A stretch of 39,102 bases of DNA. Source: Acidobacteriota bacterium. Its GTDB lineage: Bacteria > Acidobacteriota > Vicinamibacteria > Vicinamibacterales > 2-12-FULL-66-21. A program made the translations under genes and the position numbers. Numbering within the stretch: position 1 is the stretch's first letter; every line of letters starts with the position of its first letter. The stretch is taken from the NCBI GenBank assembly GCA_013362195.1, contig JABFWM010000146.1, positions 1-39,102 on the forward strand, read 5' to 3'. A model generated the notes under the pieces. It had not been told where the DNA came from. It saw nothing but the letters and a program-made list of their open reading frames with translations, and did not search any database. Of this stretch, positions 2,917-39,102 are shown one piece after another.

Positions 2917-4022
2917 GCGGCAGGGCGCTGCGGCACGACCGCGCCCTCCTCGTACAGCGTCCGCAGCCGGTCGCGCAGCCGCTCGAGCGTGAACTCCTGC
3001 TCGACGCGCGCCCGTCCAGCGGCGCCGAGACGATCGCGCAGCGACGAATCCGCCATCAGGCGATCGATGGCCGCGCGCAGCGCACGATCGTCTCCGGACG
3101 GCACGATCAGACCGGTGCGCATGTGCTGATTCACCCACGAGACGCCCGACGGCACGTCGGTGCTGATCACCGGTTTGCCCGCCGCCATCGCCTCGAGCTG
3201 CACGTAACCAAACGCCTCCGCGCGCGTCACCGACGGCAGAACCAGGGCCGCGCACGCGTGCATGAGGCGACGCAGCTCGTCGTCCGGCACTTCGCCCGTG
3301 AAGGTCGCGCGGCCGTTCAGGCCGAGGCCGCGCGCCATCGCTTCCCAGGCCCGCCGTTTCGGGCCGTCTCCCACGATGACGGCGCGGGCGGTGCTCTGCG
3401 CCAGCGCGCGCAGCAGGACGTCCACTCCCTTGTACGCGACGTGCCGTCCCGCGAACAGCACGAATGGCTCGCCCGACGGGCCCGCGCCCGCGTGGCTCCT
3501 CCATCGCGATGGCTCGATCCCGAACGGCACGACCCGGACGCGATCGCGGTACGGCGTCAGCACGGCTGCGTACTCGCCGAGCGGCGGCGACGAGACGATG
3601 ATCCGCTGCGCGCGTGCGTAGGCGACGCGGGCGAGCGGCGCATAGAACAGCGCGTACTGCAGCGCCGGCCGGACCACGTCGCTGTGGTACCAGATGAAGA
3701 GCGGCGGCCCGGGACGCGCGATCGCGTACGACAGCAGCGCCCAGGGATTCGGCTCGTGCAGCACGATGAGATCCGCCGCCGTCCGCGCGAGCCGCCGGGC
3801 AAACCCCGGCGCGACGTGGACGGAGCCGATCGATCCGATGCTGGCAACGCGGGTGACGTGTACGCCGTCGCGCCTCTCCTGCACCGTCCGGCTCGATCCA
3901 TTCAGGACGAGGACGTGGTTTTCGACGAAGCCCTGACTCGCCCGGCAGATCGTTTCGAGCACGCGCTCCATCCCGCCGGCATGCGGCGGATAGAACTTGC
4001 CGACGTGCAGGACGCGGATCAC
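2910..4022 (-). CDS. Glycosyltransferase family 4
   Basis: ORF 2910..4160, trimmed to GTG 4022..4020 (VIRVLHVGKFYPPHAGGMERV). This makes a GTGA overlap with the upstream stop at 4021..4019. C-terminal GT-B motif LPSVTRAEAFGYVQLEAMAAGKPVIST. Confidence 0.85.
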   Translation of the reverse strand: MIRVLHVGKFYPPHAGGMERVLETICRASQGFVENHVLVLNGSSRTVQERRDGVHVTRVASIGSIGSVHVAPGFARRLARTAADLIVLHEPNPWALLSYAIARPGPPLFIWYHSDVVRPALQYALFYAPLARVAYARAQRIIVSSPPLGEYAAVLTPYRDRVRVVPFGIEPSRWRSHAGAGPSGEPFVLFAGRHVAYKGVDVLLRALAQSTARAVIVGDGPKRRAWEAMARGLGLNGRATFTGEVPDDELRRLMHACAALVLPSVTRAEAFGYVQLEAMAAGKPVISTDVPSGVSWVNQHMRTGLIVPSGDDRALRAAIDRLMADSSLRDRLGAAGRARVEQEFTLERLRDRLRTLYEEGAVVPQRPAAC

Positions 4023-7956: not shown

Positions 7957-9113
7957 CGTGTGGTGCGTCCGGCCCGCGCGGATTCGTACACGGCCAGCGT
8001 CTGCGCAGCCGTCGCGGCCCATGTCAGCCCGGCAACCGCGTCGTGCGCGGCGTCGCCCAGTTGCCGCCGTCGGCAGCGATCGGTCATGAGCGCCACCACC
8101 GCCGCCGAGAGCGCGTCCGCATCGCGGAACGGGATGCGAATACCGGTGACGCCGTCGCGCACGATCGTCTCGGCATATCCGGCCGGCGTGGCAATCACCG
8201 GCAGCCGCTGGCTCATCGCCTCGATGACCACGAGGCCGAACCCTTCATAACTCGACGTCGCGAGCAGGACGTCGTGCCGCCGGTACTCCTCGATCACTCG
8301 CGTCTCGGCCGCGCGATCGATCACCGTGACGAGCGGACGGACGGCCGGCGCAAAGCTGTCGAGGACCTGCACGCGATCGACGCCGGGGCCGAGCACGGTC
8401 AGCGGCCAGCGGTGACCGTCGGCGTGCAGGCGCTCCATGGCGGCGGCGAGATAGGCGATCCCCTTGACGTGGGCCCACGAACCGCAGAACAGCAGCCCGG
8501 CGCCGCGCGGCGCATCGGGCGCCGGCGCACTCTCGACAAAGACCTGTGATACGCCGTGCGGAATGAGCGCGACGCGATCGGCTGGCTGCCAGCCGCGGTC
8601 GAGCGCGAAGCGCCGGTCGGCTTCGTTCAGCACGATCAGGCGGTCGGCGAGCCGGGCCGCGGCAGCGACCTGCGTCAGCCTCGTCGCCGGATACCACAGC
8701 CGGCGCGTCCACGGTTTGGGCAGCAGCCCGTGGCGGTGATCGTCGAGCATGCGCGCGTAGTTGGTGTGCTCGAGGCCGTTCGAGCGGCAGATCAACGCGT
8801 GGCCGTCCACGTGCGCGACCAGATTCATCACGCCCAGGAACAAGCCTTCTGCGCTGGCGGCATCGACCACGTCGTAGCGCTTCGCGCCCATGCGCCGGGC
8901 GAGCGCGCGCCCGGCCAGCCACGGCGAGGCGAGCTGACGGATGTGCCGATTCGCCGGCCAGCCTCCGATGTCGTGCGCCCACACGACGTCGCAGCTGTGC
9001 CCGCGCGAGGTGAACTCGTCGCGCAGCTTGAAGAAGACCTTCGACGACCCGAGCCGCGCGTCCTCCGCGTAATCACCGACCAGGAGGATGGACAGCGGAC
9101 GCGGCGCGCTCAC
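7953..9113 (-). CDS. Glycosyltransferase family 4
   Basis: Real part of composite ORF 7953..9683 begins at GTG 9113..9111 (VSAPRPLSILLVGDYAEDARLGSSKV). GTGA overlap with the upstream stop at 9112..9110. Motif ATSSYEGFGLVVIEAMSQRLPVIATPAG. Confidence 0.85.
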   Translation of the reverse strand: MSAPRPLSILLVGDYAEDARLGSSKVFFKLRDEFTSRGHSCDVVWAHDIGGWPANRHIRQLASPWLAGRALARRMGAKRYDVVDAASAEGLFLGVMNLVAHVDGHALICRSNGLEHTNYARMLDDHRHGLLPKPWTRRLWYPATRLTQVAAAARLADRLIVLNEADRRFALDRGWQPADRVALIPHGVSQVFVESAPAPDAPRGAGLLFCGSWAHVKGIAYLAAAMERLHADGHRWPLTVLGPGVDRVQVLDSFAPAVRPLVTVIDRAAETRVIEEYRRHDVLLATSSYEGFGLVVIEAMSQRLPVIATPAGYAETIVRDGVTGIRIPFRDADALSAAVVALMTDRCRRRQLGDAAHDAVAGLTWAATAAQTLAVYESARAGRTTR

Positions 9114-10249
9114 GTGACGATTGCCGGGACGTCTGCACGCCGGAGCGCCGCGACGGTGTGGCGGAGGGCAAAGCGTTCGTCGTAGAGGCCGCGGCACGCC
9201 GCGCCAATCGCGGTCTGCAGCGTCTTGTCCCCGGCGATGCGGTCGACGCATCCGGCGAACGCCGCAGCGTCGCCTGCCGCAACCAGCGGGACGGCGCGCG
9301 TCTCGCGCCAGATCCCTTCGGTCAGCGGCCCGTCGGTGGTGACGACGGGCCGGCCGCTCGTGAGCGCTCCCATCATCGAGGTGCGGCGCGTCGTCACGCC
9401 GTCGGGATACGGCGCGATCAACACGTCGCACGCGCGCAGCGCGGCGGCGACGTCCTCGCTCGACAGACGGCCGGTCGCGTTGACGCTGTCCGGCCGTGGT
9501 GCGGCGGCGCGCATCTCCTTCATGAACGCGACGCTGCCGTCGCCGACGAGCAGCACGCGGGCGGACGGCCGCGTCCGCCAGATCTCCGGCAGGACGCGGC
9601 GCAGCTCCGCCGCGACATGCTCGCCGTAAGTGCCGAAGTGGCCGATGACGGCGCCCTCGCGCGGCTCGACGCGGGTCATCCACCCGTTGACCAGCGACGA
9701 GGGGGGATCGATCGCGATGGTCGCGGGCACCGGGAGGACCTCGGCGTCACCGACACGCCCGTACGGACGGAGATAGCGCGACCAGTTCCCGGTCGAGAAA
9801 TACACCGTGCGGCCCGCACGCACCATCAGCGAGGCCATCGCGCGCTGCGCGATGGCGAGCGCGTTGCGCCACGGCCGTTCGAGACCGAAGTAGAAGAACG
9901 GCTCGTGGAACATCACGCGGACGTCGCCGCCCGCCTGGCGCACGCCGAGCAGCCAGCGGGCGAACGGCACGTTCGCGCCGCGCAGTCCAAATGCGGTCGG
10001 CACGTACTGCACGAGGATTGCCCCGGGCATGTCGAGGAACGCGCGATCGAGCACCGCGCGCGAGCCGCGCGCGAACCGATCCGGCAGCGCATGCACCGTG
10101 AGACGCGCGGCGCGCGCCAGCGCGGCGCCGGGATGCCACACGTGCACGACGTCGCCGGCGTCGGCGAGGGCCGCCGCGATCAACGCCGTGTAATCGCCCA
10201 CACCGCCGCAGTCGGGGGGATATTCGGGGGTCAGAATGTGCCAGAGCAT
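9110..10249 (-). CDS. Glycosyltransferase, GT-B fold (GT4-like)
   Basis: ORF 9110..10249 (379 aa). The N-terminus MLWHILTPEYPPDCGGVGDYTALIAAALADAGDVVHVW is typical of GT4/GT1 enzymes. ATG at 10249 lies 6 nt from the heptamer array, and I see no SD. Confidence 0.75.
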   Translation of the reverse strand: MLWHILTPEYPPDCGGVGDYTALIAAALADAGDVVHVWHPGAALARAARLTVHALPDRFARGSRAVLDRAFLDMPGAILVQYVPTAFGLRGANVPFARWLLGVRQAGGDVRVMFHEPFFYFGLERPWRNALAIAQRAMASLMVRAGRTVYFSTGNWSRYLRPYGRVGDAEVLPVPATIAIDPPSSLVNGWMTRVEPREGAVIGHFGTYGEHVAAELRRVLPEIWRTRPSARVLLVGDGSVAFMKEMRAAAPRPDSVNATGRLSSEDVAAALRACDVLIAPYPDGVTTRRTSMMGALTSGRPVVTTDGPLTEGIWRETRAVPLVAAGDAAAFAGCVDRIAGDKTLQTAIGAACRGLYDERFALRHTVAALRRADVPAIVT

Positions 10250-10255
10250 GGAAGA

Positions 10256-10364
10256 TTAGGGCTTAGGGCTTAGGGCTTAGGGCTCAGGGCTCAGGGCTCA
10301 GGGCTTAGGGCTCAGGGCTTAGGGCTCAGGGCTCACGGGGCTCACGGCTCACGGGGCTCAGGGA
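10256..10364. repeat. Heptanucleotide tandem repeat T(T/C)AGGGC: 11 perfect units plus 4 degenerate units
   Basis: Counted by hand. Perfect units start at 10256, 10263, 10270, 10277 (TTAGGGC), 10284, 10291, 10298 (TCAGGGC), 10305 (TT), 10312 (TC), 10319 (TT) and 10326 (TC). The degenerate units are tcacggggc, tcacggc, tcacggggc and tcaggga, ending at 10364. Confidence 0.95.
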
Positions 10365-10396
10365 CTGAAGACCCGCCCTACGGCCTCTTCTTTCGG

Positions 10397-10434
10397 CGTC
10401 ACACGTGGGCCGGGTCTTCAGACCCGGCGTGACG
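10397..10434. repeat. Solitary REP-like palindromic element (CGTCAC..GCCGGGTC-TTCA-GACCCGGC..GTGACG)
   Basis: Perfect 8-bp stem and 4-nt loop at 10409-10428, nested inside outer arms CGTCAC (10397-10402) and GTGACG (10429-10434). The same core occurs in the tandem array at 38821-39102. Confidence 0.85.
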
Positions 10435-11604
10435 ACACGCCGCGGCGCGGTTGAAGACGGAAACGAGCGCACGCACATGGCGCGCGACGGAAAACTCTCC
10501 GCCGGTTGCCCGCGCACCCGCGGACAGGCGCGTCCAGGCATCGCGATCCGACAGGACGGCGGCGATGGCGCGGCCGAAGCCCTCCGCCCCGGCGGACGGA
10601 TGGACCAGGCGTCCATTCACGCCGTCCCGCAGCCATTCGCCGATGCCGCCGCTGTCGAACGCGACGGCGGGTGTACCGAACGCACCCGCTTCGAGGCCGA
10701 CCAGGCCGAAGGGCTCGGGCCAGACGCTTGGAACGGCGACGACGCGCGCATCGCGCAGCAGGGCGTCGCGATCGGCGCCGCTGACCCAGCCTGGAAAGCG
10801 CACGTGAAGGCGATGCGTGTCGGCGAAGCGCTCCAGCCGCGTGCGCTCCGGTCCATCCCCCGCGATGACCACGCGGGCCGACGGCGTGTGTTCCGCGATC
10901 GCCCGCAGCAGTACGTCCGGTCCCTTCAACGCGGTCAGGCGGCCAAGCATCAACACGTCGATCTCGCGCGCCTCGCCGTCGCGCGTCGCGGGCGGCACGT
11001 CGAGCGGCGCAAACAGGGGAATCGCGGTCACACGCTCGCCGGCCACGCCCGCACGCAGGCACGCCTCCCGCATGTACGCGCTCGCGACGATCATCGAATC
11101 GTAACGGCTGAACAGGGCGGCCTGCCGCCGCGCCCAGCGGTACTCGTCGATCATGACGCGCGGATTCGCCGCGCCGCAGCGTCGCGGCAGGTAGTGCAGA
11201 AGACACGCCGCGCCAAACTCGCGCGCGCATGCGCGCACCTGCGGAAAGGCAACGGCCCTGCGCGCGCTCACGCACGTCCCGAAGTGCCCGTGCAGCATCT
11301 TGACGACCGGCCATTCGCCGACGAGCGCGTTGTCCACGTCGAGCGCGCCCATGTTGTGGGAGAAGCAGACGTCGGGCGCAAAGCGGCGAATCCGCTGCAG
11401 CGCCGCGTCGAGGCCTTCGCTGCGCACGCCGATGCAGGGCACGTGATCGCGCGCGATGTGAACAGGCGCCGCCGCGTCGACCGGCAGATCGTGGAGCAAT
11501 GCGACCGTGTGTCCAGCGGCCTGCAGGGCGGGCACGAGCGCGGCCAGGTAGCTTTCCACGCCGCCCGCCCCTGCGGCGATGTCGTTCGCGATCAGGATCC
11601 GCAT
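10399..11604 (-). CDS. Glycosyltransferase family 4
   Basis: Real part of composite ORF 10399..12741 starts at ATG 11604..11602 (MRILIANDIAAGAGGVESY). 1-nt TGATG overlap with the upstream stop. Motif VPSVWPEPFGLVGLEAGAFGTPAVAFDSGGIGEW. Confidence 0.85.
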   Translation of the reverse strand: MRILIANDIAAGAGGVESYLAALVPALQAAGHTVALLHDLPVDAAAPVHIARDHVPCIGVRSEGLDAALQRIRRFAPDVCFSHNMGALDVDNALVGEWPVVKMLHGHFGTCVSARRAVAFPQVRACAREFGAACLLHYLPRRCGAANPRVMIDEYRWARRQAALFSRYDSMIVASAYMREACLRAGVAGERVTAIPLFAPLDVPPATRDGEAREIDVLMLGRLTALKGPDVLLRAIAEHTPSARVVIAGDGPERTRLERFADTHRLHVRFPGWVSGADRDALLRDARVVAVPSVWPEPFGLVGLEAGAFGTPAVAFDSGGIGEWLRDGVNGRLVHPSAGAEGFGRAIAAVLSDRDAWTRLSAGARATGGEFSVARHVRALVSVFNRAAACRHAGSEDPAHV

Positions 11605-19760: not shown

Positions 19761-20579
19761 CTACAGAATCCGCTGCGGAACCTTGATCGTATCGTTCGGC
19801 AACACCGGATCGGTCAGCCTGACGCGGATCCGCTGCAGCTTGCCGTCGACGATGCGTTCGATGGTGATGCGGCTGGTCGCCGCACGTTCGGTCGCGCCGC
19901 CGGCGAGCGACAGGGCCCGCTCGACGGTCAGGCCATCCTCATAGACGATCGGACCGGTCTGACGGACGTAGCCGAGCACGAACACCGTCTCCGCTTTCGG
20001 CACGAAGATCGTATCGCGATCCTGCAGCGTGATCGCCTGCGCGCGGCCCGACTCGAGGTCGCGGCGGGGCACCCGGATCTGCTGCGCGGCCGCCTCGGTT
20101 CCGGCGGCCGCCCCGGGCGGAGATCCATAACGCGTGATCACGACGTAAGACCCCGCATCCGGCGTCATGGATCCGGCCTGGGCGAGCACCGACATGATCG
20201 AGACGTTGCCTTCGAGCTTGAACTCGCCGGGCGCGCGCACCATGCCCTGCACGGTCACGGTCTTGCTGCGGTATTTGACGATCTCGACGCTGACCGACGG
20301 GTTGACGAAGAGTCCCTTCGAGAGCCGCTGCTTGAGGTCGACTTCGAGCGCGCGCGTCGTCTGGCCGGCGGCCTTGACCCGTCCGATGTAGGGGCAATCG
20401 ATCGTCCCGTCATCGTCGACCGTGACGCCGGCGCGCGAGGCATCGGGTTCGCCGAAGACGGTGACGTTCAGGACGTCCTGCGCGCCAATGACGTATTCGG
20501 CGGTTGGACCGGCCTGCGGCCGCTGGGCGGGCGCGGCCTGAGCCGCCAGCAGGAGCAGCGCAACAATCGTCATCGTCAT
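19761..20579 (-). CDS. Polysaccharide export protein (Wza-like; Poly_export + SLBB)
   Basis: Real part of ORF 19761..21746 starts at ATG 20579..20577 (MTMTIVALLLLAAQAAPAQ, a signal peptide). Then YVIGAQDVLNVTVFGEPD...VDDDGTIDCPYIGRVKAAGQTTRALEVDLKQRL. 1-nt TAATG overlap with the upstream stop. Confidence 0.85.
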   Translation of the reverse strand: MTMTIVALLLLAAQAAPAQRPQAGPTAEYVIGAQDVLNVTVFGEPDASRAGVTVDDDGTIDCPYIGRVKAAGQTTRALEVDLKQRLSKGLFVNPSVSVEIVKYRSKTVTVQGMVRAPGEFKLEGNVSIMSVLAQAGSMTPDAGSYVVITRYGSPPGAAAGTEAAAQQIRVPRRDLESGRAQAITLQDRDTIFVPKAETVFVLGYVRQTGPIVYEDGLTVERALSLAGGATERAATSRITIERIVDGKLQRIRVRLTDPVLPNDTIKVPQRIL

Positions 20580-21784
20580 TACGAAGTCCCCCAGGTCAAT
20601 GACGCCAGCACGCGGCGGTTGCGGAACTCGCGGTCGGCGGAGCGCTCGGATTCGCGGCGCACCGATTCGAGGTTGACGCCGAGGCGTGCATGATCGCCGA
20701 ATCGATAGCCGATGCCGCCGCCCCATACGCGAGCGGTATCGGCGCCGGCGAGCGCGGCCGCGCCGCGGTACTGCATCACGTTCCGCCCGGCCGTGCCCCG
20801 CACGTCGAATGGGCCAGCCACGACGGTCGTCCAGGTGACGGTGCCGCCATTCGCGAGGTAATACGGCGTCGACGGATCGTACGAGTACTGCACGTCGCGG
20901 GTATACGCGCCCTGCAGCTGGTGCCGCCCGTAGATGGTTGCGCCGATCGCCACCGACGCGACGAACCCCGAATAGTCCGGCAGGGCGGGATTGAGCGCAT
21001 CGAAGCGGCGATAGCCGAACGCGGCGGTCCCGGTCAGCAGGCCGGTGGGACTGAAGGTCAGCGTCGGCGCGACGCGCCAGCTGTCGGAATCGCGGGCGGG
21101 CGACAGCTCGAAGCGCTGCTGATCGCGCTGCCCGATCACGCTGAACGTGGTGACAGGCGTCAGCGCCACCGCGAGGCCGCCTTCCATGCGATCCGTCCGC
21201 CCGTCGAAGCTCTGCTCGAGCGATACGCCGCGAAAGCTCGAGTCCGGCTCGTAGTTGATGCGGCTGCGGCGCAGGCTGAACAACACGCTGGTGCGCGAGG
21301 CGACGTCCAGCGAGAGCCCCACCGTGTCGGCGAGGTCGTGGTGCCGCGCGCGCTCGTCGACCTCGGTATTCAGGCGGCTGCGGGTGTTCGTCCCGGCCAC
21401 GGACGCGTAGGGACGCAGACGCCCGAGGTCGAGATCGGCGCGCACTTCGGCGGCGACGTTCGTGCCGCGCTCGCTCGCGTAGGTCTGGTAGTACACGTAC
21501 TCCGTGCCGGCGGTGGTCGAGAGATGCAGCCGGCGCACGCGAAACCCGACCGTCGCGCGCGGGTTGGCCGTGAACGTGAAATCCGATTTCGGATCGACCG
21601 GCTCGTTGAACACGTTGTCGTCGACGCCGACGTCCTTCATCGCGAACGCCGGCGTGATCGCCACCGGGCCGAGCACGATCGTCCCCGGGGGCACCTGCTC
21701 GGGCACGTTCTGCTGCGCGGAGGCGGCCCCGGCCGCGGCCAGCCATGCGACGACGGCGACGGCGCCTGACGCGGCGCGCGTCAT
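20579..21784 (-). CDS. Putative outer-membrane beta-barrel protein associated with the EPS locus
   Basis: ORF 20579..21784 (401 aa). Signal peptide MTRAASGAVAVVAWLAAAGAASAQQ. Alternating-residue, Y/T/G/R-rich sequence without long hydrophobic helices. The family assignment is inference only. Confidence 0.55.
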   Translation of the reverse strand: MTRAASGAVAVVAWLAAAGAASAQQNVPEQVPPGTIVLGPVAITPAFAMKDVGVDDNVFNEPVDPKSDFTFTANPRATVGFRVRRLHLSTTAGTEYVYYQTYASERGTNVAAEVRADLDLGRLRPYASVAGTNTRSRLNTEVDERARHHDLADTVGLSLDVASRTSVLFSLRRSRINYEPDSSFRGVSLEQSFDGRTDRMEGGLAVALTPVTTFSVIGQRDQQRFELSPARDSDSWRVAPTLTFSPTGLLTGTAAFGYRRFDALNPALPDYSGFVASVAIGATIYGRHQLQGAYTRDVQYSYDPSTPYYLANGGTVTWTTVVAGPFDVRGTAGRNVMQYRGAAALAGADTARVWGGGIGYRFGDHARLGVNLESVRRESERSADREFRNRRVLASLTWGTS

Positions 21785-22803
21785 GACGCCGCCGGCATCC
21801 CGCCGCGTCGTGAAATCCCGAGCTGCCGCGTCTTGCGATAGAGATTCGCGCGTTCGATCCCCAGCGTCCGCGCCGCGTCGCTCATCCGCCAGCGATGGCG
21901 CTCGAGCACCGCGGCGATGTAGTCGCGCTCGAACTGGCGGCGCGCTTCACGAAGGCTCACCTGCGGGGGAATGCGGGCGAACGCTCCGTCGATCGGGAGA
22001 TGCGCCAGCACGTCTTCCTGCCGCACCGTCCCGTTCGAGACCGAGCGCACGATCTTTTCGAGCACCGCACGCAGCTCGTCGAGGTTCCCCGTCCACGATG
22101 GCGCGGCGAGGACGGTCAGCGCTGCCTGGGTGAACGCGGGCGCGCCCGCGCCGCGCAACCCCGACGCGATGCGCGCCGTCAGTTCCGGAATGTCCTCCGC
22201 GCGCTCGCGGAGGCTTGGGATGGCAATCGTGATGTGCGAGAGGCGCCGGGCGAGGTCGGCGCGGACGTGGCCTTCGCGGACGTCGAGGCCAATCGACGCG
22301 GGCGCCTGCGCGATAAGGCGCGCACGAATCGCGACGCGCCGGCGGCCTGCCGTGACCTCGCGATCCCGCACGACGCGCGCAAGGCGCCGCTGGGCCGCGG
22401 CGGGCAGGTCGCCGATGTGCCGCAGATACAGGGTGCCGGCGCGCGCACGCAGGAGGGCCGCCGACGGACTCACGTGGTCGACGTCACGCTGCGCGTCGCC
22501 GCGCTGCGGCTCGCCGAACAGGTCGCGCTCGATCGCCGACGCATCCGCGCCGGCGCAATCGAGGGCGATGAAAGGCGTCCCGGGCCGGCTGCGGCCGTGA
22601 ATCGCCTGCGCGACGGCGTCGGCGTCGAGGCCGGCGTCCGCCGCGATCAGGACCGGCGCGTCGTTGCGCAGCGCCTCGGCAAAGGCGCCACGGGCGTGCT
22701 GGGCGGCCGCCGACGCCCCGGTCAGCGGCAGCGGCCACGCATCGCCGGCCGGCGGTCGCGGCGTGCGCCCGCGCGATGGCGGACGAGAACGTGAAGTACG
22801 CAT
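21781..22803 (-). CDS. sigma54-interaction-domain (bEBP-like) Fis-family transcriptional regulator with degenerate ATPase motifs
   Basis: ORF 21781..22977, trimmed to ATG 22803..22801 because the codons upstream of it lose the G/C third-position bias. Retains LRERAEDIPEL, WTGNLDEL and a C-terminal Fis-type HTH (RWRMSDAARTLGIERANLYRKTRQLGI). ATGA overlap with the downstream gene. Confidence 0.75.
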   Translation of the reverse strand: MRTSRSRPPSRGRTPRPPAGDAWPLPLTGASAAAQHARGAFAEALRNDAPVLIAADAGLDADAVAQAIHGRSRPGTPFIALDCAGADASAIERDLFGEPQRGDAQRDVDHVSPSAALLRARAGTLYLRHIGDLPAAAQRRLARVVRDREVTAGRRRVAIRARLIAQAPASIGLDVREGHVRADLARRLSHITIAIPSLRERAEDIPELTARIASGLRGAGAPAFTQAALTVLAAPSWTGNLDELRAVLEKIVRSVSNGTVRQEDVLAHLPIDGAFARIPPQVSLREARRQFERDYIAAVLERHRWRMSDAARTLGIERANLYRKTRQLGISRRGGMPAAS

Positions 22804-22905
22804 GATGGTCGAGAGCGCCGGCCGCAGCTTCGCCCTGTCAGTCCCAGCGGGCGGCCGGGCCGAAAGGTGCGGCACTCGGAATGATGACGGGTGGAGAGCA
22901 CGGCA

Positions 22906-22934
22906 ATTGTCTCGCGCCTCAGCGGTTGTGTCAA
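22906..22934 (-). promoter_or_regulatory. Candidate sigma70-type promoter TTGACA-N17-GACAAT upstream of the regulator/EPS operon
   Basis: Read on the minus strand: TTGACA at 22934..22929, a 17-nt spacer, then GACAAT at 22911..22906. It sits in the only visibly lower-GC stretch of the locus, about 100 nt upstream of ATG 22803. The inverted repeat GTGTC-N6-GACAC (22928-22943) overlaps the -35. Confidence 0.3.
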
Positions 22935-23102
22935 TAGCGACACGCAGGAGCGTCATATTCGACACACGGCCGTCCATTGCGGCCGCCCCGGCGCGACTCA
23001 GGTGAAGAGGGAATGGCTGCTGACATCAACAGCGACCGCTCTCTCGCGTGCACGTCAGCTCCCTCGCGCGCAACAAACGAAGGGTGGCGATGCTCGGTCG
23101 TA

Positions 23103-24098
23103 TCAGCCGCGGGCATGAGGCCGCAGCACGCGGCGCAGCTGACGCATCGCCCAGCGCCGCGGCCGTCCCGCCTGGTGCCGCCACGTGCGCTGGTGCTTGA
23201 GGATGGCCCCGGGAAACCGATCGTCGAAGGTGTCGAGGTCGGCCTCCCGATCGCGCACCACCCAGTCCGGGTGCCGCAGATCGGCGTCGAGCGGGCCGAC
23301 CGCGCGATGCAGCGTGGGGTGCGCGCTGGTGTGCGTCGCATCGCTTCCCGACCCGATGTTCGCGACGAGATTCACCGCCGGATGAATGGAGAGCCCCTGC
23401 GTCATGCAGGCGAACTGCCACGCGTAGTCCCACGCGGAGGGAAGGCGCCCCTCGTACGTCTGCTGGAAGGTGCCGTGCCAGTAGGCGCGCTCGTCGCTGG
23501 TGTCGAACAGCGCCGCCGCTTCGGGCTGCGCCTGGAACGCCGGCCACCCCCGCATCTCGAGATCGAAGAACCGCCACGCACGACGCCAGGTCGCCCATCC
23601 CCAGATGAGTGCGTACTTCGAGAAGTAGTACGAGCATGACGAGCCGCGCCGCCGCCGATACGTCTCGCCGCTGACGTGCACGATGCGCGAGTCGTCGCGA
23701 TAACGCTCGAGCATCGCGGCGCAGAACCGGAAGAAATCGGGTGAAGGCAGGCAGTCGTCTTCGAGCACGATCCCGGCATCGCACGCGCCGAAGAACCAGT
23801 CCAGCGCGGAACTCACGCGCCGCCGGCATCCAAGGTTCTCATGCGCGAAATCCGTCGTCACTTCGCACGGCCACGTCGGCGTGGAGACGATGCGCCGGAC
23901 CGCGTCACACCTCGGCACGTCGCGATCGCTGGCCGGCCCATCGGCCGCGACGAACAGCCGCCGCGGCCGCGCCGCCGCGAGCGCCTCGAACACGCGCGCC
24001 GTCAGCTCCGGACGACGGTAGACGAGCAGAAGGACCGGAACGTCGCGTGGATCGGCTGTTCCGTGTCCATCCGTACGAATCGGCGTCGGCGATCCCAT
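23103..24098 (-). CDS. GT-A fold glycosyltransferase (HlpA-like / GT2-related)
   Basis: ORF 23103..24215, trimmed to ATG 24098..24096 (MGSPTPIRTDG..VPVLLLVYRRPELTARVFEAL). Motifs VLEDDCLPSPDFFRF and SKYALIWGWATWRRAW recall HlpA-like nucleotide-diphospho-sugar transferases. This comes from memory of the family, not a search. Confidence 0.6.
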   Translation of the reverse strand: MGSPTPIRTDGHGTADPRDVPVLLLVYRRPELTARVFEALAAARPRRLFVAADGPASDRDVPRCDAVRRIVSTPTWPCEVTTDFAHENLGCRRRVSSALDWFFGACDAGIVLEDDCLPSPDFFRFCAAMLERYRDDSRIVHVSGETYRRRRGSSCSYYFSKYALIWGWATWRRAWRFFDLEMRGWPAFQAQPEAAALFDTSDERAYWHGTFQQTYEGRLPSAWDYAWQFACMTQGLSIHPAVNLVANIGSGSDATHTSAHPTLHRAVGPLDADLRHPDWVVRDREADLDTFDDRFPGAILKHQRTWRHQAGRPRRWAMRQLRRVLRPHARG

Positions 24099-24117
24099 CC
24101 GTGTCAATCCGTTGTGC

Positions 24118-25224
24118 TTACAGGCCGGCACGCGAGCGCATCGCCCCCGCGCCGGCGCGGTGGTGCGCGCGCGACGCCGCGTCGAGGATGCGATCGAGCA
24201 CCGCGGCGGGCGCATACGTGTCGAGCGCCCGGCTGCGTCCGCGCGCCGCCAGCGCCTGCCATCGCGCGTCGTCGGTCAGCAGTGCGGCACAGGCGCGCAC
24301 GAACTGGCGTCGATACAGCCAGCGCCGGGGACGGCCGGCGACGAGCACGCCGCCGTCACCGACGGTCGTGACCAGCGCGAAGTCGTTCGTCGTCACCGGC
24401 ACGGCGCCTGCCGCCATGCACTCCGCCGCCGCGAGGCAGAACCCTTCCTCGAACGTGCAGGGATACGCCATGACGCGCGCGCGGCGCTGCCACGCGACCA
24501 GCTCCGGGCGTGTCACGTGTCCGGCATATTCGACGCCCGGCTGCCCCGCGAAGAACTTCATGAACGCGTCCTTCGCCGCCGGCGCGCCCCAGAGCGAGAA
24601 GTCGGACGTAATCACCAGGCGCGCATCCGGCACCCGCCGCCGGATGGCCGGATACATGTCCTTGAGATAGTAGAGCCCCCGATCCGGCACCGAACAGTAA
24701 ATGAGGAGCGGCTCCTTCGCGGCGGATGGATCACCGTAGTCGGCGGTTTCGATCGGCGCGCCGATCGACTCGATGCCGGTGTCGGCAATCAGACCGGCCA
24801 GACGTACCCGCTGGTAGTCCGAGAGCGTGAGCGACAGATGCGCCCACGCCGCGCAGCGCATCAGGCCCGCCGGGTCGGGGACGTGCACGTCCGTCCAGAT
24901 GAACGCCCGGACCGTGCCGCGGTTCGAGACGACATCCGACCAGTGTTTGAACAGCAGCACGAGATCGAACGGATCGTCGCCGAGCGATCCGACCGGCACG
25001 TAACGCACGCCGGCATCGGTTCGGACGGCGGCGATGCGGTTGGCGACCACGACGGCTGCGCCGCGCGCGGCCAGCGCTTCCGCGAGAAGCACGACGCAGG
25101 CTTCCGTCCCGCCGATCCCCGATGTGCGGAAGTCGCGTCCGCTGAACGGCGGCCCCGCGTCGAGGACGAGGAGCACGCGCCGTCCACGCACGTCACCGGT
25201 GTATCCGTATGGATCCGTGAGCAT
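24118..25224 (-). CDS. Glycosyltransferase, GT-B fold (GT4/GT1-like)
   Basis: Real part of composite ORF 24118..27198 starts at ATG 25224..25222 (MLTDPYGYTGDVRGRRVLLVLDAG..GGTEACVVLLAEALAARG). C-terminal AYPCTFEEGFCLAAAECMAAGAVPVTT. Confidence 0.7.
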   Translation of the reverse strand: MLTDPYGYTGDVRGRRVLLVLDAGPPFSGRDFRTSGIGGTEACVVLLAEALAARGAAVVVANRIAAVRTDAGVRYVPVGSLGDDPFDLVLLFKHWSDVVSNRGTVRAFIWTDVHVPDPAGLMRCAAWAHLSLTLSDYQRVRLAGLIADTGIESIGAPIETADYGDPSAAKEPLLIYCSVPDRGLYYLKDMYPAIRRRVPDARLVITSDFSLWGAPAAKDAFMKFFAGQPGVEYAGHVTRPELVAWQRRARVMAYPCTFEEGFCLAAAECMAAGAVPVTTNDFALVTTVGDGGVLVAGRPRRWLYRRQFVRACAALLTDDARWQALAARGRSRALDTYAPAAVLDRILDAASRAHHRAGAGAMRSRAGL

Positions 25225-25235
25225 CGCTGGTGGAC

Positions 25236-27044
25236 TCACGTCGTCAGTCCGCGGACCAGGCGGTCGAACGTACCCTGCGCCGCCTGCAGCGACTCCCATG
25301 TTCCTTGCTCGACGATCGCGCCGCGCTCGAGGACCACGATCCAGTCGGCCTCGCGGATCGTCGACAGCCGGTGCGCGATAACGATGGTGGTGCGCCCGCG
25401 GGAGGCGTTCGCGAGCGCCTGCTGCACGAGCTGCTCCGACACCGAGTCGAGGTGCGAGGTGGCTTCGTCGAGGATGAGAATGCTGGGGTCGCGCACGATC
25501 GCACGCGCGATCGCGATGCGCTGCCGCTGCCCGCCCGACACCATCGCGCCGCGTTCCCCGACGAGCGTGTCGACTCCATCGGGCAGCGAGGCGACCATGT
25601 CTCGCAGGTTCGCGGCATCGATCGCGCGATCCAGGGCATCGGGCGACGCGTGCTGCCAGCCGTAGAGCACGTTCTCCTTCAGCGTCCCGTGGAACAGGAA
25701 CGCGTCCTGCTCGACGAGCGCGATCGCGCGGTGCCAGCTTTCGGGCGTGACGTTCCAGTAGTCCATGCCGTCGACGCTGATGCGGCCCGCCGAGGGCGCG
25801 CGCAGCCGCAGGAGCAGCGCCGCGAGCGTGGACTTCCCCGACCCCGACGCGCCGACGATCGCCAGCGTCCGGCCCGCCGTCACGACGAAGTCGGCGTCGC
25901 GCAGGGCTTCGGTGCCGGTCGTGTAGCGGTAGCTGACGCGCTCGAAGCGCAGCTCCCGCCGCAGCCCCTGGAACTCGACGTGCCCGAAGGGACGCTCCGG
26001 ATACATCGGCGTCGCCAGCCACTTGTCGACCTCCCGGATGCCGCCCGCGAGATAGAACAGGTGCCCCTGCATCGTATAGAGCTGATTGAGGAGCGGCAGC
26101 AGCCGCAGCAGCACGAACCCGTACCAGAGCAAATAGCTGCTCAGCATGTGGCCGGGACGCACCAGGAAGACGTAGGCGCAGGCGACGATCAGCATCGCGC
26201 CCAGCACCGCGAGCGTTTCGGTCAGCGGGAAGAGCAGCGCCTGGGCGCGCGCGGTCGATTCCTCCGCGTCGGATTGCGCGGCGCTGACGGCCGCGAAGCG
26301 GTCGATCTCGCGCTGCTGCGAGTTCGTGACCCTGACGACGCGAACGCCGGCGAACGATTGCTCGAGCACCGACGACAACTGGTGATTGAGGTCGGTGAGG
26401 CGCGTGCCGGCGCGTCCAAGCCGCCGATACACGAACGCGAGCGTGCCGCCGATCGCGACGCCGAGCGCGACCACCAGCGAGGTGAGCGGCCACGAGATGT
26501 AGAACAGGGCGACGACATAGAACAGCGCGATGCTGAGGCGCTGCACGAAGCCGACCGATGCATCGATCGCCACCGTCGTCCGGAACGTTTCGACGAGGAA
26601 CATGTTGGCGATCTCGCCGGCCGGACGCTGATCGAAGACGTCGAGCCCGGCGCGCTGGAGACGCTCGAACAGCGCGCGGCGCAGGCCGATGGACACGCGC
26701 TGCTTGAGGCGCGCCGCGAAGAGCTGCGCGACGTAGCTCGCGACGTTCTTCGCGGCGATGGCGCTGACGATCGCGATGCAGCACACCCCCACGTAAAAGG
26801 CCGGGGAGTGGTTCGGGAGCTGCCGCTCCAGCCACTGAATCGGCCGCATCGGCACGGCGTTGGTGCCGCCGAGCAGGAGCGACAGCAAGGGGACGAGCAG
26901 GCCGACGCCCACGCCCTCGAACAGCACCATCACGAGCGAGCTGACGAGCGTGGCGATGAGGAGGCCGCGTCCGGCGCCGAGGTACGGGCGCAGCCGCATC
27001 AGCAGGCGCCAGACGTCGCGCGTCTGCAGCCACCACGAGGTCAT
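25236..27044 (-). CDS. ABC transporter, fused permease/ATP-binding exporter (MsbA-like type)
   Basis: ORF 25236..27167, trimmed to ATG 27044..27042 (MTSWWLQTRDVWRLLMRLRPYL). ATGA overlap with the upstream stop. Six-TM-type N-terminal half, Walker A GASGSGKST, signature VSGGQRQRIAIARA and Walker B ILILDEATS. Confidence 0.9.
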   Translation of the reverse strand: MTSWWLQTRDVWRLLMRLRPYLGAGRGLLIATLVSSLVMVLFEGVGVGLLVPLLSLLLGGTNAVPMRPIQWLERQLPNHSPAFYVGVCCIAIVSAIAAKNVASYVAQLFAARLKQRVSIGLRRALFERLQRAGLDVFDQRPAGEIANMFLVETFRTTVAIDASVGFVQRLSIALFYVVALFYISWPLTSLVVALGVAIGGTLAFVYRRLGRAGTRLTDLNHQLSSVLEQSFAGVRVVRVTNSQQREIDRFAAVSAAQSDAEESTARAQALLFPLTETLAVLGAMLIVACAYVFLVRPGHMLSSYLLWYGFVLLRLLPLLNQLYTMQGHLFYLAGGIREVDKWLATPMYPERPFGHVEFQGLRRELRFERVSYRYTTGTEALRDADFVVTAGRTLAIVGASGSGKSTLAALLLRLRAPSAGRISVDGMDYWNVTPESWHRAIALVEQDAFLFHGTLKENVLYGWQHASPDALDRAIDAANLRDMVASLPDGVDTLVGERGAMVSGGQRQRIAIARAIVRDPSILILDEATSHLDSVSEQLVQQALANASRGRTTIVIAHRLSTIREADWIVVLERGAIVEQGTWESLQAAQGTFDRLVRGLTT

Positions 27045-28136: not shown

Positions 28137-30575
28137 TCAGTAGGCGACGAGCAGCCGCGCGGCGCGTTCGATCTCGGCGGCGCTCGGAAGAAAGCGCGCC
28201 TCGAGCGGCGGCGAGTACGGCACCGGCGTATCGAGCGCGCCGATCACGCGGACCGGCGCATCGAGCGATTCGAACGCTTCCTCTTGAACGATCGCGGCGA
28301 GGCTCTCGCCGATCCCGCCGGTGCGCGAATCTTCGTGCACGATCAACACGCGATTGCAGTGCCGCGCGACGGCCAGCACCGCCGCCTTGTCGAGCGGCGC
28401 CAGCCAGCGAAGATCGAGCACGCTCGCGTGGATGCCGTCCCCGGCAAGCGTCTCCGCGACGGCGAGCGCGGTCTGCACGTAGGCGCCGTAGGAAATGATC
28501 GCGAGGTCGTCGCCCGCGCGCCTCAAGGCGGCGGTGCCCACCGGCAGCGGCGACGGCGGCGCCGCGTCCAGCGCCTGCTTGACTCGCGGATCGCGGTAGA
28601 GCGCGATGTGCTCGTAGTAGAGGACCGGATCCGGATCCGCGATTGCCGACGCCATCAGCGCGCGCGCGTCCGACGGCGTCGAGGGCACGACGATCTTCAG
28701 TCCGGGCGTCCGGTAGAACCACGGTTCGGTGTTCTGGCTGTGGTACGGTCCCGCGTGACGGAGGCCGCCCCACGGCATCCGCAGCACCATCGGCACCGAA
28801 CCGCCCCAGCGATAGCGAATCTTCGCCGCGTTGTTCACGAGCTGATTGAAGCCGGTCGCGACGAAGTCGTTGAACTGCATCTCGCCGATTGGCCGCTGGC
28901 CGGCGAGCGCGGCGCCGACGCACACGCCAATCACCGCGCCCTCGGCGAGCGGCGCGTTCAGGATGCGATCCCCGAAGCGCGCCAGCAGCGGGCGCAGCAG
29001 CAGGAAGGCGTTGCCGTAGGCGCCCCCGACGTCCTCGCCGTAGACGAACACGCGGGGATCCGACGCGAGCGCATCGCCGATCCCGAGCATCACCGCCTCG
29101 AGGAAGGTGTGTCCCTTCGCATCGCGCGGCGGACCGGGTTCGAGCGGCGGCAGCGGCGCATCGAAGCCGGCGCCCGCGCGAATCCGCGGATCGAGCACCT
29201 CGACGCGCGTACGGCGTTCGCCGCCCGCGACCACGTCGTCGCCCACGCGATCCGCGTCCGGCCATGGTGCGCCAATCACCTCGCGCGCCTGCGCGTCGAC
29301 GAGCGCCTCGACCTCGCGCTTGATGCCTTCCAGCTCGCCTGGCCCAATCACGCCGTCGGCCTCGAGGCGCGCGGCATACGTGACGAGCGGGTCCCGCTGC
29401 GACCAGTACTCGTACAACGCACGATCGACGTACCCCTGTTCCGCGGGCGACGGGTACTGCCACGACGGCGGCGGATCCTTGCCCAGATACAGCATGTCGT
29501 CGTGGTGCGCGTGGCCGCACATCCGCATGCAGACCAGCTCGATGAGCGTAGGCCCGCGTCCGTCGCGCGCGCGCTCCACGGCCCACGTGAACGCGGCGGC
29601 GATTTCGTCCGGGTCGGTGCCGTCAATCGTGATCCCCGGCACGCCGTATCCTGACGCCTTGTCGGCGAACACGCGCGCCGCGGATTGCTCGCGAACAGGC
29701 GTCGAGAGCGCCGTCTGATTGTTCTGCACGCAGAAGATCGCCGGCAGCCGCCGCGCCGCGCACAGGTTGATCGCCTCGTGCCACTCGCCGAGCGACGACC
29801 CGCCTTCGCCGATGAACGACAGCGCGACGCGCCCGTCGCCGTGCCGGGCGAAGGCCATGGCGATCCCCGCGATCGACAGCGTCCCGATCGCCAGCGGTGC
29901 GCTCGGGGGAAGAACGCCCCACGCGAAGTCGCCGACGTGGAGATCGCGGCCGTCCATGGGCGGGCCGGCCTTGCCCATCTGCGCCGACAGCACCCGGCGC
30001 ACCATCTCACCGTCCGTTCGCATGGCGAGGACGACACCCAGATCGCGGATGAGGGGCGCGACGATGTCGCCGCGCCAGCTGTCGCCCTGCTGGAACGACG
30101 GACCCCGCCGCAGGCGGATGGCCGCGGCGTAGATCGCCTCCTGGCCGAGCGAGCGGAACCCTTTCCCCTGAAAGGCCGCGTCGCCGTAGCGGACGTCCCC
30201 GCCCGTGAAGAACTGCTTCAATCGATTGTCGGTCGCGCGCGTCAGGGCCATGCCGCGGAGGATTTCGCGGCGTTCGGCCGCGGTGAGCGAGGCGCGGATC
30301 GACGCACGGCGGAGGAAGCCGTCGCAGCCGGCGAGCAGCTCGTCGACGGCGGCGCACCAGCGTGCCGGCGACGACACGCGCGGCGTCGTGTCGGGGAAAT
30401 CCGGGGGCGGGGCCAGCGTCCGGCGCAGCGCCGCCGCAAACGGCGCACGCAGCGCGTCAATCGCGCCGGCATCCGACACGGCACCGCCGCCCACCGCGTC
30501 GAACGCTGCCAGCGCCTCCCGGTGCGCGAACGGAAACCGTTCCAGCACGAAGGCGCCGAGCAGCGCGCGGTTCAT
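28137..30575 (-). CDS. Fused alpha/beta E1 component of a TPP-dependent 2-oxoacid dehydrogenase, with an N-terminal extension of about 110 aa
   Basis: Real part of ORF 28137..30998 starts at ATG 30575..30573 (MNRALLGAFVLERF). ATGA overlap with the trxC stop. E1-alpha TPP region SFIGEGGSSLGEWHEAINLCAARRLPAIFCVQNNQTA. E1-beta region VFVYGEDVG..GNAF...RILNAPLAEGAVIGVCVGAALAGQRPIGEMQF. Confidence 0.85.
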   Translation of the reverse strand: MNRALLGAFVLERFPFAHREALAAFDAVGGGAVSDAGAIDALRAPFAAALRRTLAPPPDFPDTTPRVSSPARWCAAVDELLAGCDGFLRRASIRASLTAAERREILRGMALTRATDNRLKQFFTGGDVRYGDAAFQGKGFRSLGQEAIYAAAIRLRRGPSFQQGDSWRGDIVAPLIRDLGVVLAMRTDGEMVRRVLSAQMGKAGPPMDGRDLHVGDFAWGVLPPSAPLAIGTLSIAGIAMAFARHGDGRVALSFIGEGGSSLGEWHEAINLCAARRLPAIFCVQNNQTALSTPVREQSAARVFADKASGYGVPGITIDGTDPDEIAAAFTWAVERARDGRGPTLIELVCMRMCGHAHHDDMLYLGKDPPPSWQYPSPAEQGYVDRALYEYWSQRDPLVTYAARLEADGVIGPGELEGIKREVEALVDAQAREVIGAPWPDADRVGDDVVAGGERRTRVEVLDPRIRAGAGFDAPLPPLEPGPPRDAKGHTFLEAVMLGIGDALASDPRVFVYGEDVGGAYGNAFLLLRPLLARFGDRILNAPLAEGAVIGVCVGAALAGQRPIGEMQFNDFVATGFNQLVNNAAKIRYRWGGSVPMVLRMPWGGLRHAGPYHSQNTEPWFYRTPGLKIVVPSTPSDARALMASAIADPDPVLYYEHIALYRDPRVKQALDAAPPSPLPVGTAALRRAGDDLAIISYGAYVQTALAVAETLAGDGIHASVLDLRWLAPLDKAAVLAVARHCNRVLIVHEDSRTGGIGESLAAIVQEEAFESLDAPVRVIGALDTPVPYSPPLEARFLPSAAEIERAARLLVAY

Positions 30576-31039: not shown

Positions 31040-31209
31040 GATCTTGTTCCTGCCTGCTTCACGACGTCTGACGGCTCACCTGAACGATCACGAAGCGACG
31101 AAGGCCACGACGCATCACCCGCCGAACGACGTTGTCGAGTCGTTCCTTGTGTGATCTTCGTCGCGTGGTGCGCGTCGCGATGAGCCGTTGGCCGTCGCTC
31201 CGTTGCCCA

Positions 31210-37102: not shown

Positions 37103-37618
37103 ATGCGCATCCGCATCCTGGTGACGGGCGGCACGTTCGACAAGGAATACGACGAGCTGACCGGCCGCCTCTATTTCCGCGACACGCACGTGCCCGAGAT
37201 GCTCCGGCGCGGCCGCGCCCGCCTGGATCTCGCGATCGAGACGGTGATGATGATCGACAGCCTCGAGATGACCGACGCCGGCCGCGCCGCGATCGTGCGC
37301 CGCTGCCAGGAGGCCGCCGAGCAGGCGATCGTGATCACGCACGGGACCGATACGATGGTCGAGACCGCCGCCGCGCTGGCGCGCGCGCCGTTGATCGGCA
37401 AGACGATCGTGCTCACCGGCGCGATGGTGCCGTACGCGTTCGGCAGCTCGGACGGCCTGTTCAATCTCGGCAGTGCCCTGTCGTTCGCGCAGGTTCTCGC
37501 GCCCGGCGTGTACATCGCGATGAACGGTCAGCACTTCGCGTGGAACGCGTGCCGCAAGAACCGCGACACCGGCGTCTTCGAACGCACTGAAGCAGCAAAC
37601 CCTGAATCCGAACGCTGA
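37103..37618 (+). CDS. Short asparaginase-family domain protein (N-terminal asparaginase/glutaminase-like domain)
   Basis: Real part of ORF 36470..37618 starts at ATG 37103 (MRIRILVTGGTFDKEYDE..), with GAGGA 10 nt upstream. Motifs VTGGT and VITHGTDTMVETAAAL are the asparaginase threonine-triad regions. Confidence 0.7.
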   Translation: MRIRILVTGGTFDKEYDELTGRLYFRDTHVPEMLRRGRARLDLAIETVMMIDSLEMTDAGRAAIVRRCQEAAEQAIVITHGTDTMVETAAALARAPLIGKTIVLTGAMVPYAFGSSDGLFNLGSALSFAQVLAPGVYIAMNGQHFAWNACRKNRDTGVFERTEAANPESER

Positions 37619-37664
37619 ACGCGAACCGCTTGAACGTGTGAACCTCATGAACCCTGAACCGTCC

Positions 37665-38820: not shown

Positions 38821-39102
38821 GGCGCCGGGTCTGAAGACCGGCGCTCGCGCGTGACAGATGTAGCCCGGGTCGTCAGACCCGGCGTTCGCGCGTGACAGAT
38901 GTAGCCCGGGCCGTCAGACCCGGCGCGCGCGCGTGACAGATGTAGCCCGGGTCGTCAGACCCGGCGTTCGCGCGCGACAGATGTAGGCCGGGTCTTCAGA
39001 CCCGGCGCTCGCGCGTGACAGATGTAGGCCGGGTCTTCAGACCCGGCGTTCGCGCGTGACAGCTGTAGGCCGGGTCTTCAGACCCGGCGCTCGCGCGTGA
39101 CA
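38821..39102. repeat. 41-bp tandem array of a palindromic REP-like unit (one diverged unit, six full units, one truncated by the window end)
   Basis: The motif GTGACAG(A/C)TGTAG(G/C)CCGGGTC(T/G)TCAGACCCGGCG... recurs with GTGACA/GCGACA at 38851, 38892, 38933, 38974, 39015, 39056 and 39097, an exact 41-nt period. Each unit holds a 7-8 bp stem and 4-nt loop. The array starts 2 nt after the ybdL stop. Confidence 0.95.

Follow-up and report, generated by a model that had tools for sequence, protein, structure and literature searches.

A heptamer array between two glycosyltransferase genes

What kind of element is the run of 15 heptamers that separates two glycosyltransferase genes in an operon whose genes mostly overlap, and does its length matter to the genes behind it? 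The array lies at 10256–10364 of a 39,102-nt stretch of DNA from an uncultured Acidobacteriota bacterium (contig JABFWM010000146.1; the whole stretch analysed is hereafter called the window). The window has a G+C content of 71 %, and its closest genomes are uncultured Acidobacteriota metagenome-assembled genomes (gp6, Vicinamibacterales) at 54–66 % protein identity. Its string of GT4 and GT2 glycosyltransferase, methyltransferase, ABC transporter, BBP2_2 beta-barrel porin and sigma-54 activator genes is a cluster of the exopolysaccharide (EPS) type, and by sitting within it the array is associated with surface-structure genes. The gene before the array, here termed GT-A, encodes a 401-aa GT4 glycosyltransferase (10399–11604, minus strand; stop codon at 10399–10401), and the gene behind it, GT-B, encodes a 379-aa GT4-like glycosyltransferase (MLWHILTPEYPP...; 9110–10249, minus strand) whose stop overlaps the next glycosyltransferase start by 4 nt. 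We identify the array as a hypermutable heptanucleotide microsatellite, in other words a simple sequence repeat (SSR) or variable-number tandem repeat (VNTR), of the heptamer class known from bacterial intergenic regions; it occupies the spacer between two cistrons of an EPS glycosyltransferase operon. We regard its identity as a slippage-driven, hypervariable SSR as very probable; the fuller explanation, in which this SSR also acts as an expression-grading spacer, has in our view an even chance of being correct.

Read on the plus strand, positions 10256–10332 hold four TTAGGGC and three TCAGGGC units followed by TTAGGGC, TCAGGGC, TTAGGGC and TCAGGGC, giving 11 perfect units (six and five, respectively), and the decayed tail at 10333–10364 comprises, in order, TCACGGGGC, TCACGGC, TCACGGGGC and TCAGGGA. 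A previous reading of the locus, made from its letters and open reading frames (ORFs) without database searches and referred to here as the sequence-only reading, had counted 11 perfect and four decayed units. Both direct reading and Tandem Repeats Finder (TRF; period 7, 14.6 copies, score 134, with a second row at period 9) bear this count out. The G-rich plus strand is the template strand, and in the mRNA the perfect part consists of six GCCCUAA (GCCCTAA) and five GCCCUGA (GCCCTGA) units; this is the part that varies between strains. The four decayed units, of 9, 7, 9 and 7 nt, read TCCCTGA, GCCCCGTGA, GCCGTGA and GCCCCGTGA in the sense direction, with the first overlapping the 3′ arm of a palindromic element described below. 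Of the 12 matches to a two-unit pattern in the window, 11 fall within the array and one lies outside it; shuffles lead one to expect 0.37 matches. No second array of the GCCCTRA-type unit was found in the 39-kb window or elsewhere in ~630 kb of related loci.

The array makes up 109 nt of the 149-nt gap between GT-A and GT-B. As the sequence-only reading had it, the last unit ends 6 nt from the GT-B start codon (ATG, 10249); the intervening linker (10250–10255, minus strand) reads UCUUCC in the mRNA (GGAAGA on the plus strand) and has no Shine–Dalgarno (SD) match. An SD is thus indeed missing where a ribosome-binding site would normally sit, but this is weak evidence because SD sequences are absent at most gene starts of the operon, GT-B included. 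The start of GT-B does not lie further upstream, since an in-frame TAA stands 9 nt before the ATG, and the claim that every mRNA frame is stopped holds for the 149-nt gap as a whole, all three frames being closed by TGA or TAA. The gap had also been described as the only large one between glycosyltransferase genes and as filled by the array. There is no other gap between two such genes, but the array does not fill this one, the rest belonging to a pair of palindromic elements that the earlier account overlooked and that appears to have created the gap. Nor is the operon coupled by overlaps throughout: most junctions are 4-nt ATGA or GTGA overlaps, but gaps of ~125 nt (22978–23102) and ~170 nt (31040–31209) are present as well, neither of them between two glycosyltransferase genes.

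Copy number differs among near-identical strains

Strain contigs were collected by exact look-up of the GT-B protein and of variants differing from it at one to three residues; they derive from several metagenome series and share 98.5–99.8 % DNA identity with the window. Five units were present in 15 contigs (allele A), eight in L006, which has three extra GCCCTAA units (allele B), and 15 in the window itself (allele W), whilst a fourth, partial allele containing a 6-nt unit was found in L122–L124 (allele D). In a 7.1-kb alignment of eight strains with 45 single-nucleotide polymorphism (SNP) columns, the array was the only internal indel. Comparing copy number across related sequences had been proposed as the check on a slipped-strand substrate of variable length, and the outcome agrees with that prediction: length alleles among near-identical strains, combined with the sole indel in 7.1 kb, indicate a hypermutable microsatellite. 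The locus therefore shows what defines a bacterial SSR, namely head-to-tail, near-perfect units beyond chance expectation and copy-number polymorphism among close strains.

Imperfect repeat units are expected to be stable, hence the control value of a decayed heptamer tract at 37598–37660, which was identical in four strains. An assembly artefact is an unlikely source of the alleles, judging from consensus sequences, as their lengths of ~40, 61 and 109 nt all fall below the MEGAHIT k of 141 and the order of TAA and TGA units is aperiodic. Five contigs break off within the array, which hints at heterogeneity but does not prove it. For this population, the locus is both a strain-typing marker and a known assembly break-point.

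REP-like elements and a proposed origin of the array

Repetitive extragenic palindromic (REP) sequences and bacterial interspersed mosaic elements (BIMEs) of Gram-negative bacteria are intercistronic and combine a GTAG with a palindrome. Two elements of this kind surround the GT-A stop codon. The first, on the minus strand at 10361–10381 (GTAGGGCGGGTCTTCAGTCCC), is a GTAG followed by an imperfect palindrome. Its inverted partner on the plus strand at 10405–10425 (GTGGGCCGGGTCTTCAGACCC) pairs with 10361–10382 in a 22-nt stem that is 86 % complementary and encloses the GT-A stop codon. The two copies share the consensus GTAGG(G/C)CGGGTCTTCAG(A/T)CCC, and six more copies are present towards the end of the window, at 38860–39085, within a 41-bp tandem array. 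With their GTAG, imperfect palindrome, multiple copies and inverted intercistronic pairing, these elements conform to the REP/BIME definition; the heptamer array does not, as it is a direct tandem repeat that only starts at a REP arm. It begins exactly at the 3′ arm of the minus-strand copy (..TTCAGTCCC/TGAGCCCCG/TGAGCCG..). The 41-bp array itself spans 38838–39102, runs off the window end and has at least 6.5 copies, each with GTAG(G/C)CCGGGTC(T/G)TCAGACCCGGC; contigs L128, L129 and L130 stop inside it, and the order of its unit variants differs among strains.

The C-terminus of GT-A (..RHAGSEDPAHV, followed by the stop codon), amounting to its last ~10 codons, is encoded by the REP-like hairpin at window positions 10399–10436, on the side of the plus-strand copy and not of the one from which the array starts. 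From this it appears that a REP insertion took the place of the gene's original 3′ end, stop codon included. The arrangement of REP element plus units is also found in relatives L131, L132 and L013/L038. We propose that the ancestral GT-A/GT-B junction may have been a 4-nt stop/start overlap (GTGA or ATGA) providing translational coupling, that an inverted pair of REP-like elements would have opened this junction in the window's clade, and that replication slippage could then have extended the array outwards from one REP's 3′ arm (..CAGTCCC TGAGCCC..).

Heptamer arrays recur at the same junction with different units

The GT-A/GT-B junction was compared across ~110 relatives (27 genome loci, 80 JGI metagenome loci and two look-ups). 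In ~100 of them the two genes meet in the usual way, with stop and start overlapping as GTGA or ATGA or standing a few nucleotides apart, and ~10 carry arrays. In the window's clade, relatives have a REP element and NTRAGCC units at this position: L131 (84 % identity) has ~6 imperfect units ending in GTGAACC before the ATG, L132 (68 %) three units and L013/L038 (66 %) decayed units. A second clade, comprising L022 and L025–L028, has 7-nt arrays of other unit sequences at the orthologous junction in all five members. These are four copies of AGGCACT in L022, five of an AGCACTA-type unit and then nine of AGAACTC in L025, three of TAGTCCC in L026, eight of ACGAGGC in L027 and two units in L028; the L027 array is translated as the tail of GT-A, with a TAG that overlaps the GTG start. 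The GT-B homologue of L025–L028, a Vicinamibacterales clade, is ~650 aa long and has a fused extra C-terminal domain of ~270 aa that is missing from the window protein.

In further related Acidobacteriota contigs, arrays also stand directly upstream of an orthologous glycosyltransferase gene (..HSYVVAxNRRLAHEMA..) in L096, where nine to 11 copies of GAACCGT (2448–2529) run into the GTG start, and in L079, where 8.6 copies of GGTGAATT (2364–2432) occupy the orthologous junction. In L075, six CCTTTTC units (3005–3052) lie between the GT-B stop and the next glycosyltransferase start. The GTGA stop/start-overlap motif is present in several units of junction arrays of the L096, L079 and L075 type. 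At the same junction, L053 (3875–3990) has a ~150-nt gap with four copies of AAGGCAG and their imperfect reverse complement ~50 nt later; by its sequence this insert would be classed as a long hairpin or an element resembling a miniature inverted-repeat transposable element (MITE), not as a plain heptamer array.

A census of repeat periods in 631 kb of related DNA, counting arrays of at least four copies and at least 85 % self-identity, returned eight arrays of period 7, with up to 13 copies, and one of period 8. Periods 6 and 9–12 gave none, and periods 4–5 gave nine hits, all of them GC-simple and of 4–4.5 copies only. Every multi-copy array in the 631 kb sits at a gene junction. Judging from these comparisons, the recurring features are a 7-nt period, a position at the stop/start junction and, usually, a stop codon in the unit, often as GTGA or ATGA. 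G-runs and C-richness do not recur among the arrays of related lineages, so period and position, and not G-quadruplex (G4) potential, are what is shared. Recurrence with differing units provides a comparative data point on why 7-nt SSRs are over-represented in large, high-GC genomes, an excess long noted but unexplained.

A spacer that may grade expression of the distal genes

Among the roles considered, the most likely is that of an unstructured, untranslatable spacer of variable length that would weaken coupling/polarity onto the distal genes, with a neutral by-product of slippage almost as likely. The array RNA is predicted to be unpaired in both the minimum free energy and centroid folds and folds worse than 191 of 200 shuffles (z = +1.6). 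With 42 % C and 24 % G it falls at the 99.5th percentile of C–G skew in the window, G being not very low. If ribosomes that terminate on GT-A are unable to carry over into GT-B, the array would thereby act as a variable-length untranslated spacer. A longer array would be expected to weaken re-initiation at GT-B and to leave more naked, C-rich RNA open to Rho-type polarity. Copy number would in this way grade, and not switch, the output of GT-B along with that of the genes coupled to it by overlaps downstream, and the polysaccharide could change. Graded control of this sort has a precedent in hmw1A, which is expressed in inverse proportion to the length of its transcribed 7-nt SSR (PMC12721329). 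Reasoning from sequence comparison, we suggest tentatively, at somewhat below even probability, that the number of units influences how strongly the distal genes are expressed.

Several observations weigh against such a spacer. Most genes here lack an SD, and ribosomes may initiate at the SD-less GT-B start in the usual way, unstructured RNA being one possible basis; lengthening such a leader could even raise initiation instead of lowering it. The C-rich composition is not common to the arrays of other lineages, which also removes rut-like composition as a conserved feature; C–G skew is higher elsewhere in the window, and a reading as a rho utilisation (rut) site, which is ~80 nt of untranslated, unpaired RNA rich in C and poor in G, is accordingly not general. 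Position alone is no proof of function, because a compact operon leaves non-triplet repeats hardly any place but junctions. The five-unit allele is common to strains up to 28 SNPs per 7 kb apart, so that change is not extremely fast and the pattern is VNTR-like, any high-frequency reversible switching being hypothetical. All comparisons are, moreover, between metagenome-assembly consensus sequences, mostly from a few related sample series.

Much of this would be accommodated if the array were a neutral or slightly deleterious by-product, a slippage-prone filler seeded by a REP arm or a duplicated stop/start junction, subject to ordinary VNTR drift and devoid of any adaptive or regulatory role. 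It would be tolerated because the operon offers no other non-coding DNA for it to lie in and because, at any copy number, the stops in its units would end the upstream frame. We consider this a serious alternative, although one that falls a little short of an even chance. It fits the sporadic occurrence of junction arrays (~10 of ~110 relatives, most of which keep the GTGA or ATGA overlap), the decay of units in the sister lineages L013/L038, L132 and L131, the similar decayed tract before an unrelated aminotransferase gene (37598–37660) and the stability of the common five-unit allele over the sampled strain diversity. Heptamer excess in large, high-GC genomes has likewise been attributed to polymerase slippage, and the Xanthomonas and Nostoc repeats are without a found function (PMC4692102). 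What drift explains less readily is that an array has been kept at the same junction across 66–84 % protein identity in the window's clade, that all five members of the second clade (L022, L025–L028) have arrays despite turnover of the unit sequence, and that period 7 is strongly favoured over all other periods among multi-copy arrays. Stop codons also occur in the units of eight to nine of 12 arrays, compared with ~12 % for random heptamers of this base composition by a hand estimate, though origin or survivorship may explain this as well.

Two further readings assign a function to the repeat unit itself, and both are improbable. Ribosomes might use the array as a standby site, or a multimeric protein might bind it (S1, Csp, CsrA-like, or HutP/TRAP-like proteins reading spaced triplets), such that SD-independent translation of GT-B was restored after the REP insertion broke coupling, with more units giving more expression. 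The weak folding of the array RNA next to the strong stem of the REP pair just upstream, its reach to within 6 nt of an SD-less ATG and a similar proposal for TAACTGA repeats that adjoin SD-less start codons (PMC4679880) are all consistent with this. We nonetheless think it quite unlikely: a conserved sequence-specific binder is not compatible with unit sequences that differ between lineages, lack of structure is generic for tandem short units, and no candidate gene for a binding protein was identified in the window. Slightly less probable still is a G4 element, in which the G-rich template strand (12 GGG-N4 repeats) would fold when unwound and hinder or modulate RNA polymerase or replication, the number of G-tracts setting the strength. 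That the plus strand satisfies the G4 sequence rule, as the sequence-only reading stated, was verified by a regular-expression match to the canonical G3N1-7 motif at 10259–10340; the match has 12 G-tracts of the G3N4 form, and the 39-kb window contains just one other motif of this kind. The layout also matches that of the Xanthomonas/Nostoc repeats (co-oriented ORFs with the G-rich sequence on the non-coding strand, no more than 50 bp before an ORF), for which K+-dependent G4 formation has been shown by circular dichroism (PMC4692102). However, the mean G4Hunter score is only moderate (1.08), an RNA G4 is impossible because the mRNA carries the C-rich strand, and a regulatory role was not demonstrable even for the Xanthomonas repeats (PMC4692102). 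G-runs are also absent from most orthologous-junction arrays (AGGCACT, AGAACTC, ACGAGGC) and from those of neighbouring junctions (GAACCGT, GGTGAATT, CCTTTTC). Orthologous arrays without G-runs rule out G4 as a conserved feature and make it unlikely as a selected property or a general explanation.

The expression-grading spacer could also be taken further, to a recurrent, selected device of EPS operons in soil Acidobacteriota in which stop-carrying microsatellites of 7–8 nt turn coupling into a mutable, graded link. We consider this extension unlikely, if less so than the two unit-specific readings. Under it, arrays would arise at EPS glycosyltransferase operon junctions through duplication of the GTGA/ATGA overlap or of an adjacent REP arm, and lineages of a free-living soil bacterium would stochastically vary the second half of their glycan assembly line. 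More speculatively, units of the ATGAGCC, GTGAGCC and CCGTGAA type might make up a series of overlapping mini-ORFs along which re-initiating ribosomes are passed over the spacer. Stochastic variation of the glycan would be contingency-locus behaviour, which, to our knowledge, has so far hardly been documented outside host-adapted pathogens, and soil aggregation, desiccation tolerance and phage adsorption all depend centrally on EPS. Should the number of units indeed tune the distal glycosyltransferases, this locus would be a first indication of EPS diversification by microsatellite slippage in uncultured soil Acidobacteria.

Comparison with described heptamer repeats

No bacterial element of this form was known to the sequence-only reading, but precedents exist. 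Rehm et al. (2015) described heptamer SSRs of 2–26 units, GGGAATC in Xanthomonas and GGGGAYT in Nostoc, which form G4 in vitro and to which no function could be assigned (PMC4692102). These repeats lie between co-oriented ORFs, with the G-rich strand non-coding, within 50 bp upstream of an ORF, and relatives, as in Xanthomonas, show extensive variation in SSR length and sequence at the same intergenic position; earlier work cited there found heptamers over-represented among the SSRs of large, high-GC genomes, possibly through polymerase slippage (PMC4692102). The present array shares with them a 7-nt unit with a G3 tract that satisfies the G4 rule, co-oriented flanking genes, a G-rich non-coding strand within 50 bp of an ORF and length variation between relatives at the same intergenic position. 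Unlike them, it is built of GGGCTTA and GGGCTCA, comes from a different phylum and is the only such array in 39 kb, its genome-wide abundance being judged from the window and ~630 kb only. There is no preference for four units (5–15 were seen), its sense units carry stop codons whereas GATTCCC does not, and it interrupts a normally coupled junction, attached to a REP-like element.

The TAACTGA direct repeats of marine Beggiatoaceae, Cyanobacteria and Bacteroidetes (MacGregor 2015) occur mostly in two to six copies at ~170 loci per genome, adjoin SD-less start codons and have no predicted RNA structure; a translational role has been suggested for them (PMC4679880). Here too, TAA and TGA stops lie in the sense strand, the repeats stop just a few nucleotides short of a start codon that lacks an SD, and no RNA structure is predicted. 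The differences are the unit (GCCCTAA/GCCCTGA), the presence of a single array of 5–15 copies, the documented strain-level length polymorphism and the use of other units at the same junction by related Acidobacteria. In Haemophilus influenzae, the (ATCTTTC)n repeat of hmw1A and hmw2A is a transcribed SSR in the 5′ untranslated region (5′-UTR) that forms a long hairpin with a G-rich arm, which is cut by RNase III (PMC12721329). Our array resembles it as a heptanucleotide upstream of a surface-structure gene whose copy number changes by slippage, graded expression being a feature of the hmw repeat. It differs in being intercistronic, whereas the hmw SSR lies in a monocistronic 5′-UTR downstream of a promoter, and in being predicted unpaired where the latter forms an RNase III-type hairpin. 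An hmw-like hairpin between the array and the upstream G-rich segment was not predicted, with only an 18-nt partial complement of 78 % at 10375–10392. We would class the array with the bacterial intergenic heptamer SSRs, to which it adds a new phylum; noteworthy are its origin at a REP arm, its interruption of a coupling junction and the recurrence of such arrays, with different units, at orthologous junctions.

Other candidate identities and features of the window

Other identities were considered for the array and its surroundings. An Rfam scan of 10100–10600 returned nothing but one miRNA hit, attributable to chance (E = 0.78) and well under the gathering score. A scan of 9800–11000 found no internal sigma-70-like promoter, the only promoter type it covers, and no intrinsic terminator. 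A sigma-54 promoter was also rejected, as the TGGCAC just after the ATG is a conserved Trp-His codon pair and the −12 element is absent. The array is not a coding sequence or small ORF, all three sense frames being closed and the plus-strand ORF at 9158–10273 being antisense to GT-B. Contiguous 7-nt units without spacers rule out a CRISPR array, which has repeats of 23–50 nt and unique spacers. A telomeric repeat of the TTAGGG type does not apply either, the unit being 7 and not 6 nt and the array being internal to an operon: coding sequence flanks it in the window as well as in 98-kb contigs.

Further along the window lie a BBP2_2 beta-barrel porin-like protein gene (20579–21784), a gene for a sigma-54 enhancer-binding activator (21781–22977), upstream of which is the ~125-nt gap at 22978–23102, and an ABC exporter gene (25236–27044). 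This make-up (20579–27044) is reminiscent of EPS loci of the exosortase/PEP-CTERM type. A 30-nt tandem repeat of 2.4 copies (28196–28267; TRF score 88) within a long minus-strand ORF is presumably a coding repeat, its length being a multiple of 3. The decayed heptamer tract at 37598–37660, of GAACCNT type, reads GAACCCT GAATCC GAACGCT GAACGC GAACCGCTT GAACGTGT GAACCTCAT GAACCCT GAACCGT. It starts with the final codons and stop of an asparaginase-domain gene and reaches to 4 nt short of the ATG (37665) of an aminotransferase gene, again with no SD; given this position, heptamer tracts here are not confined to glycosyltransferase operons.

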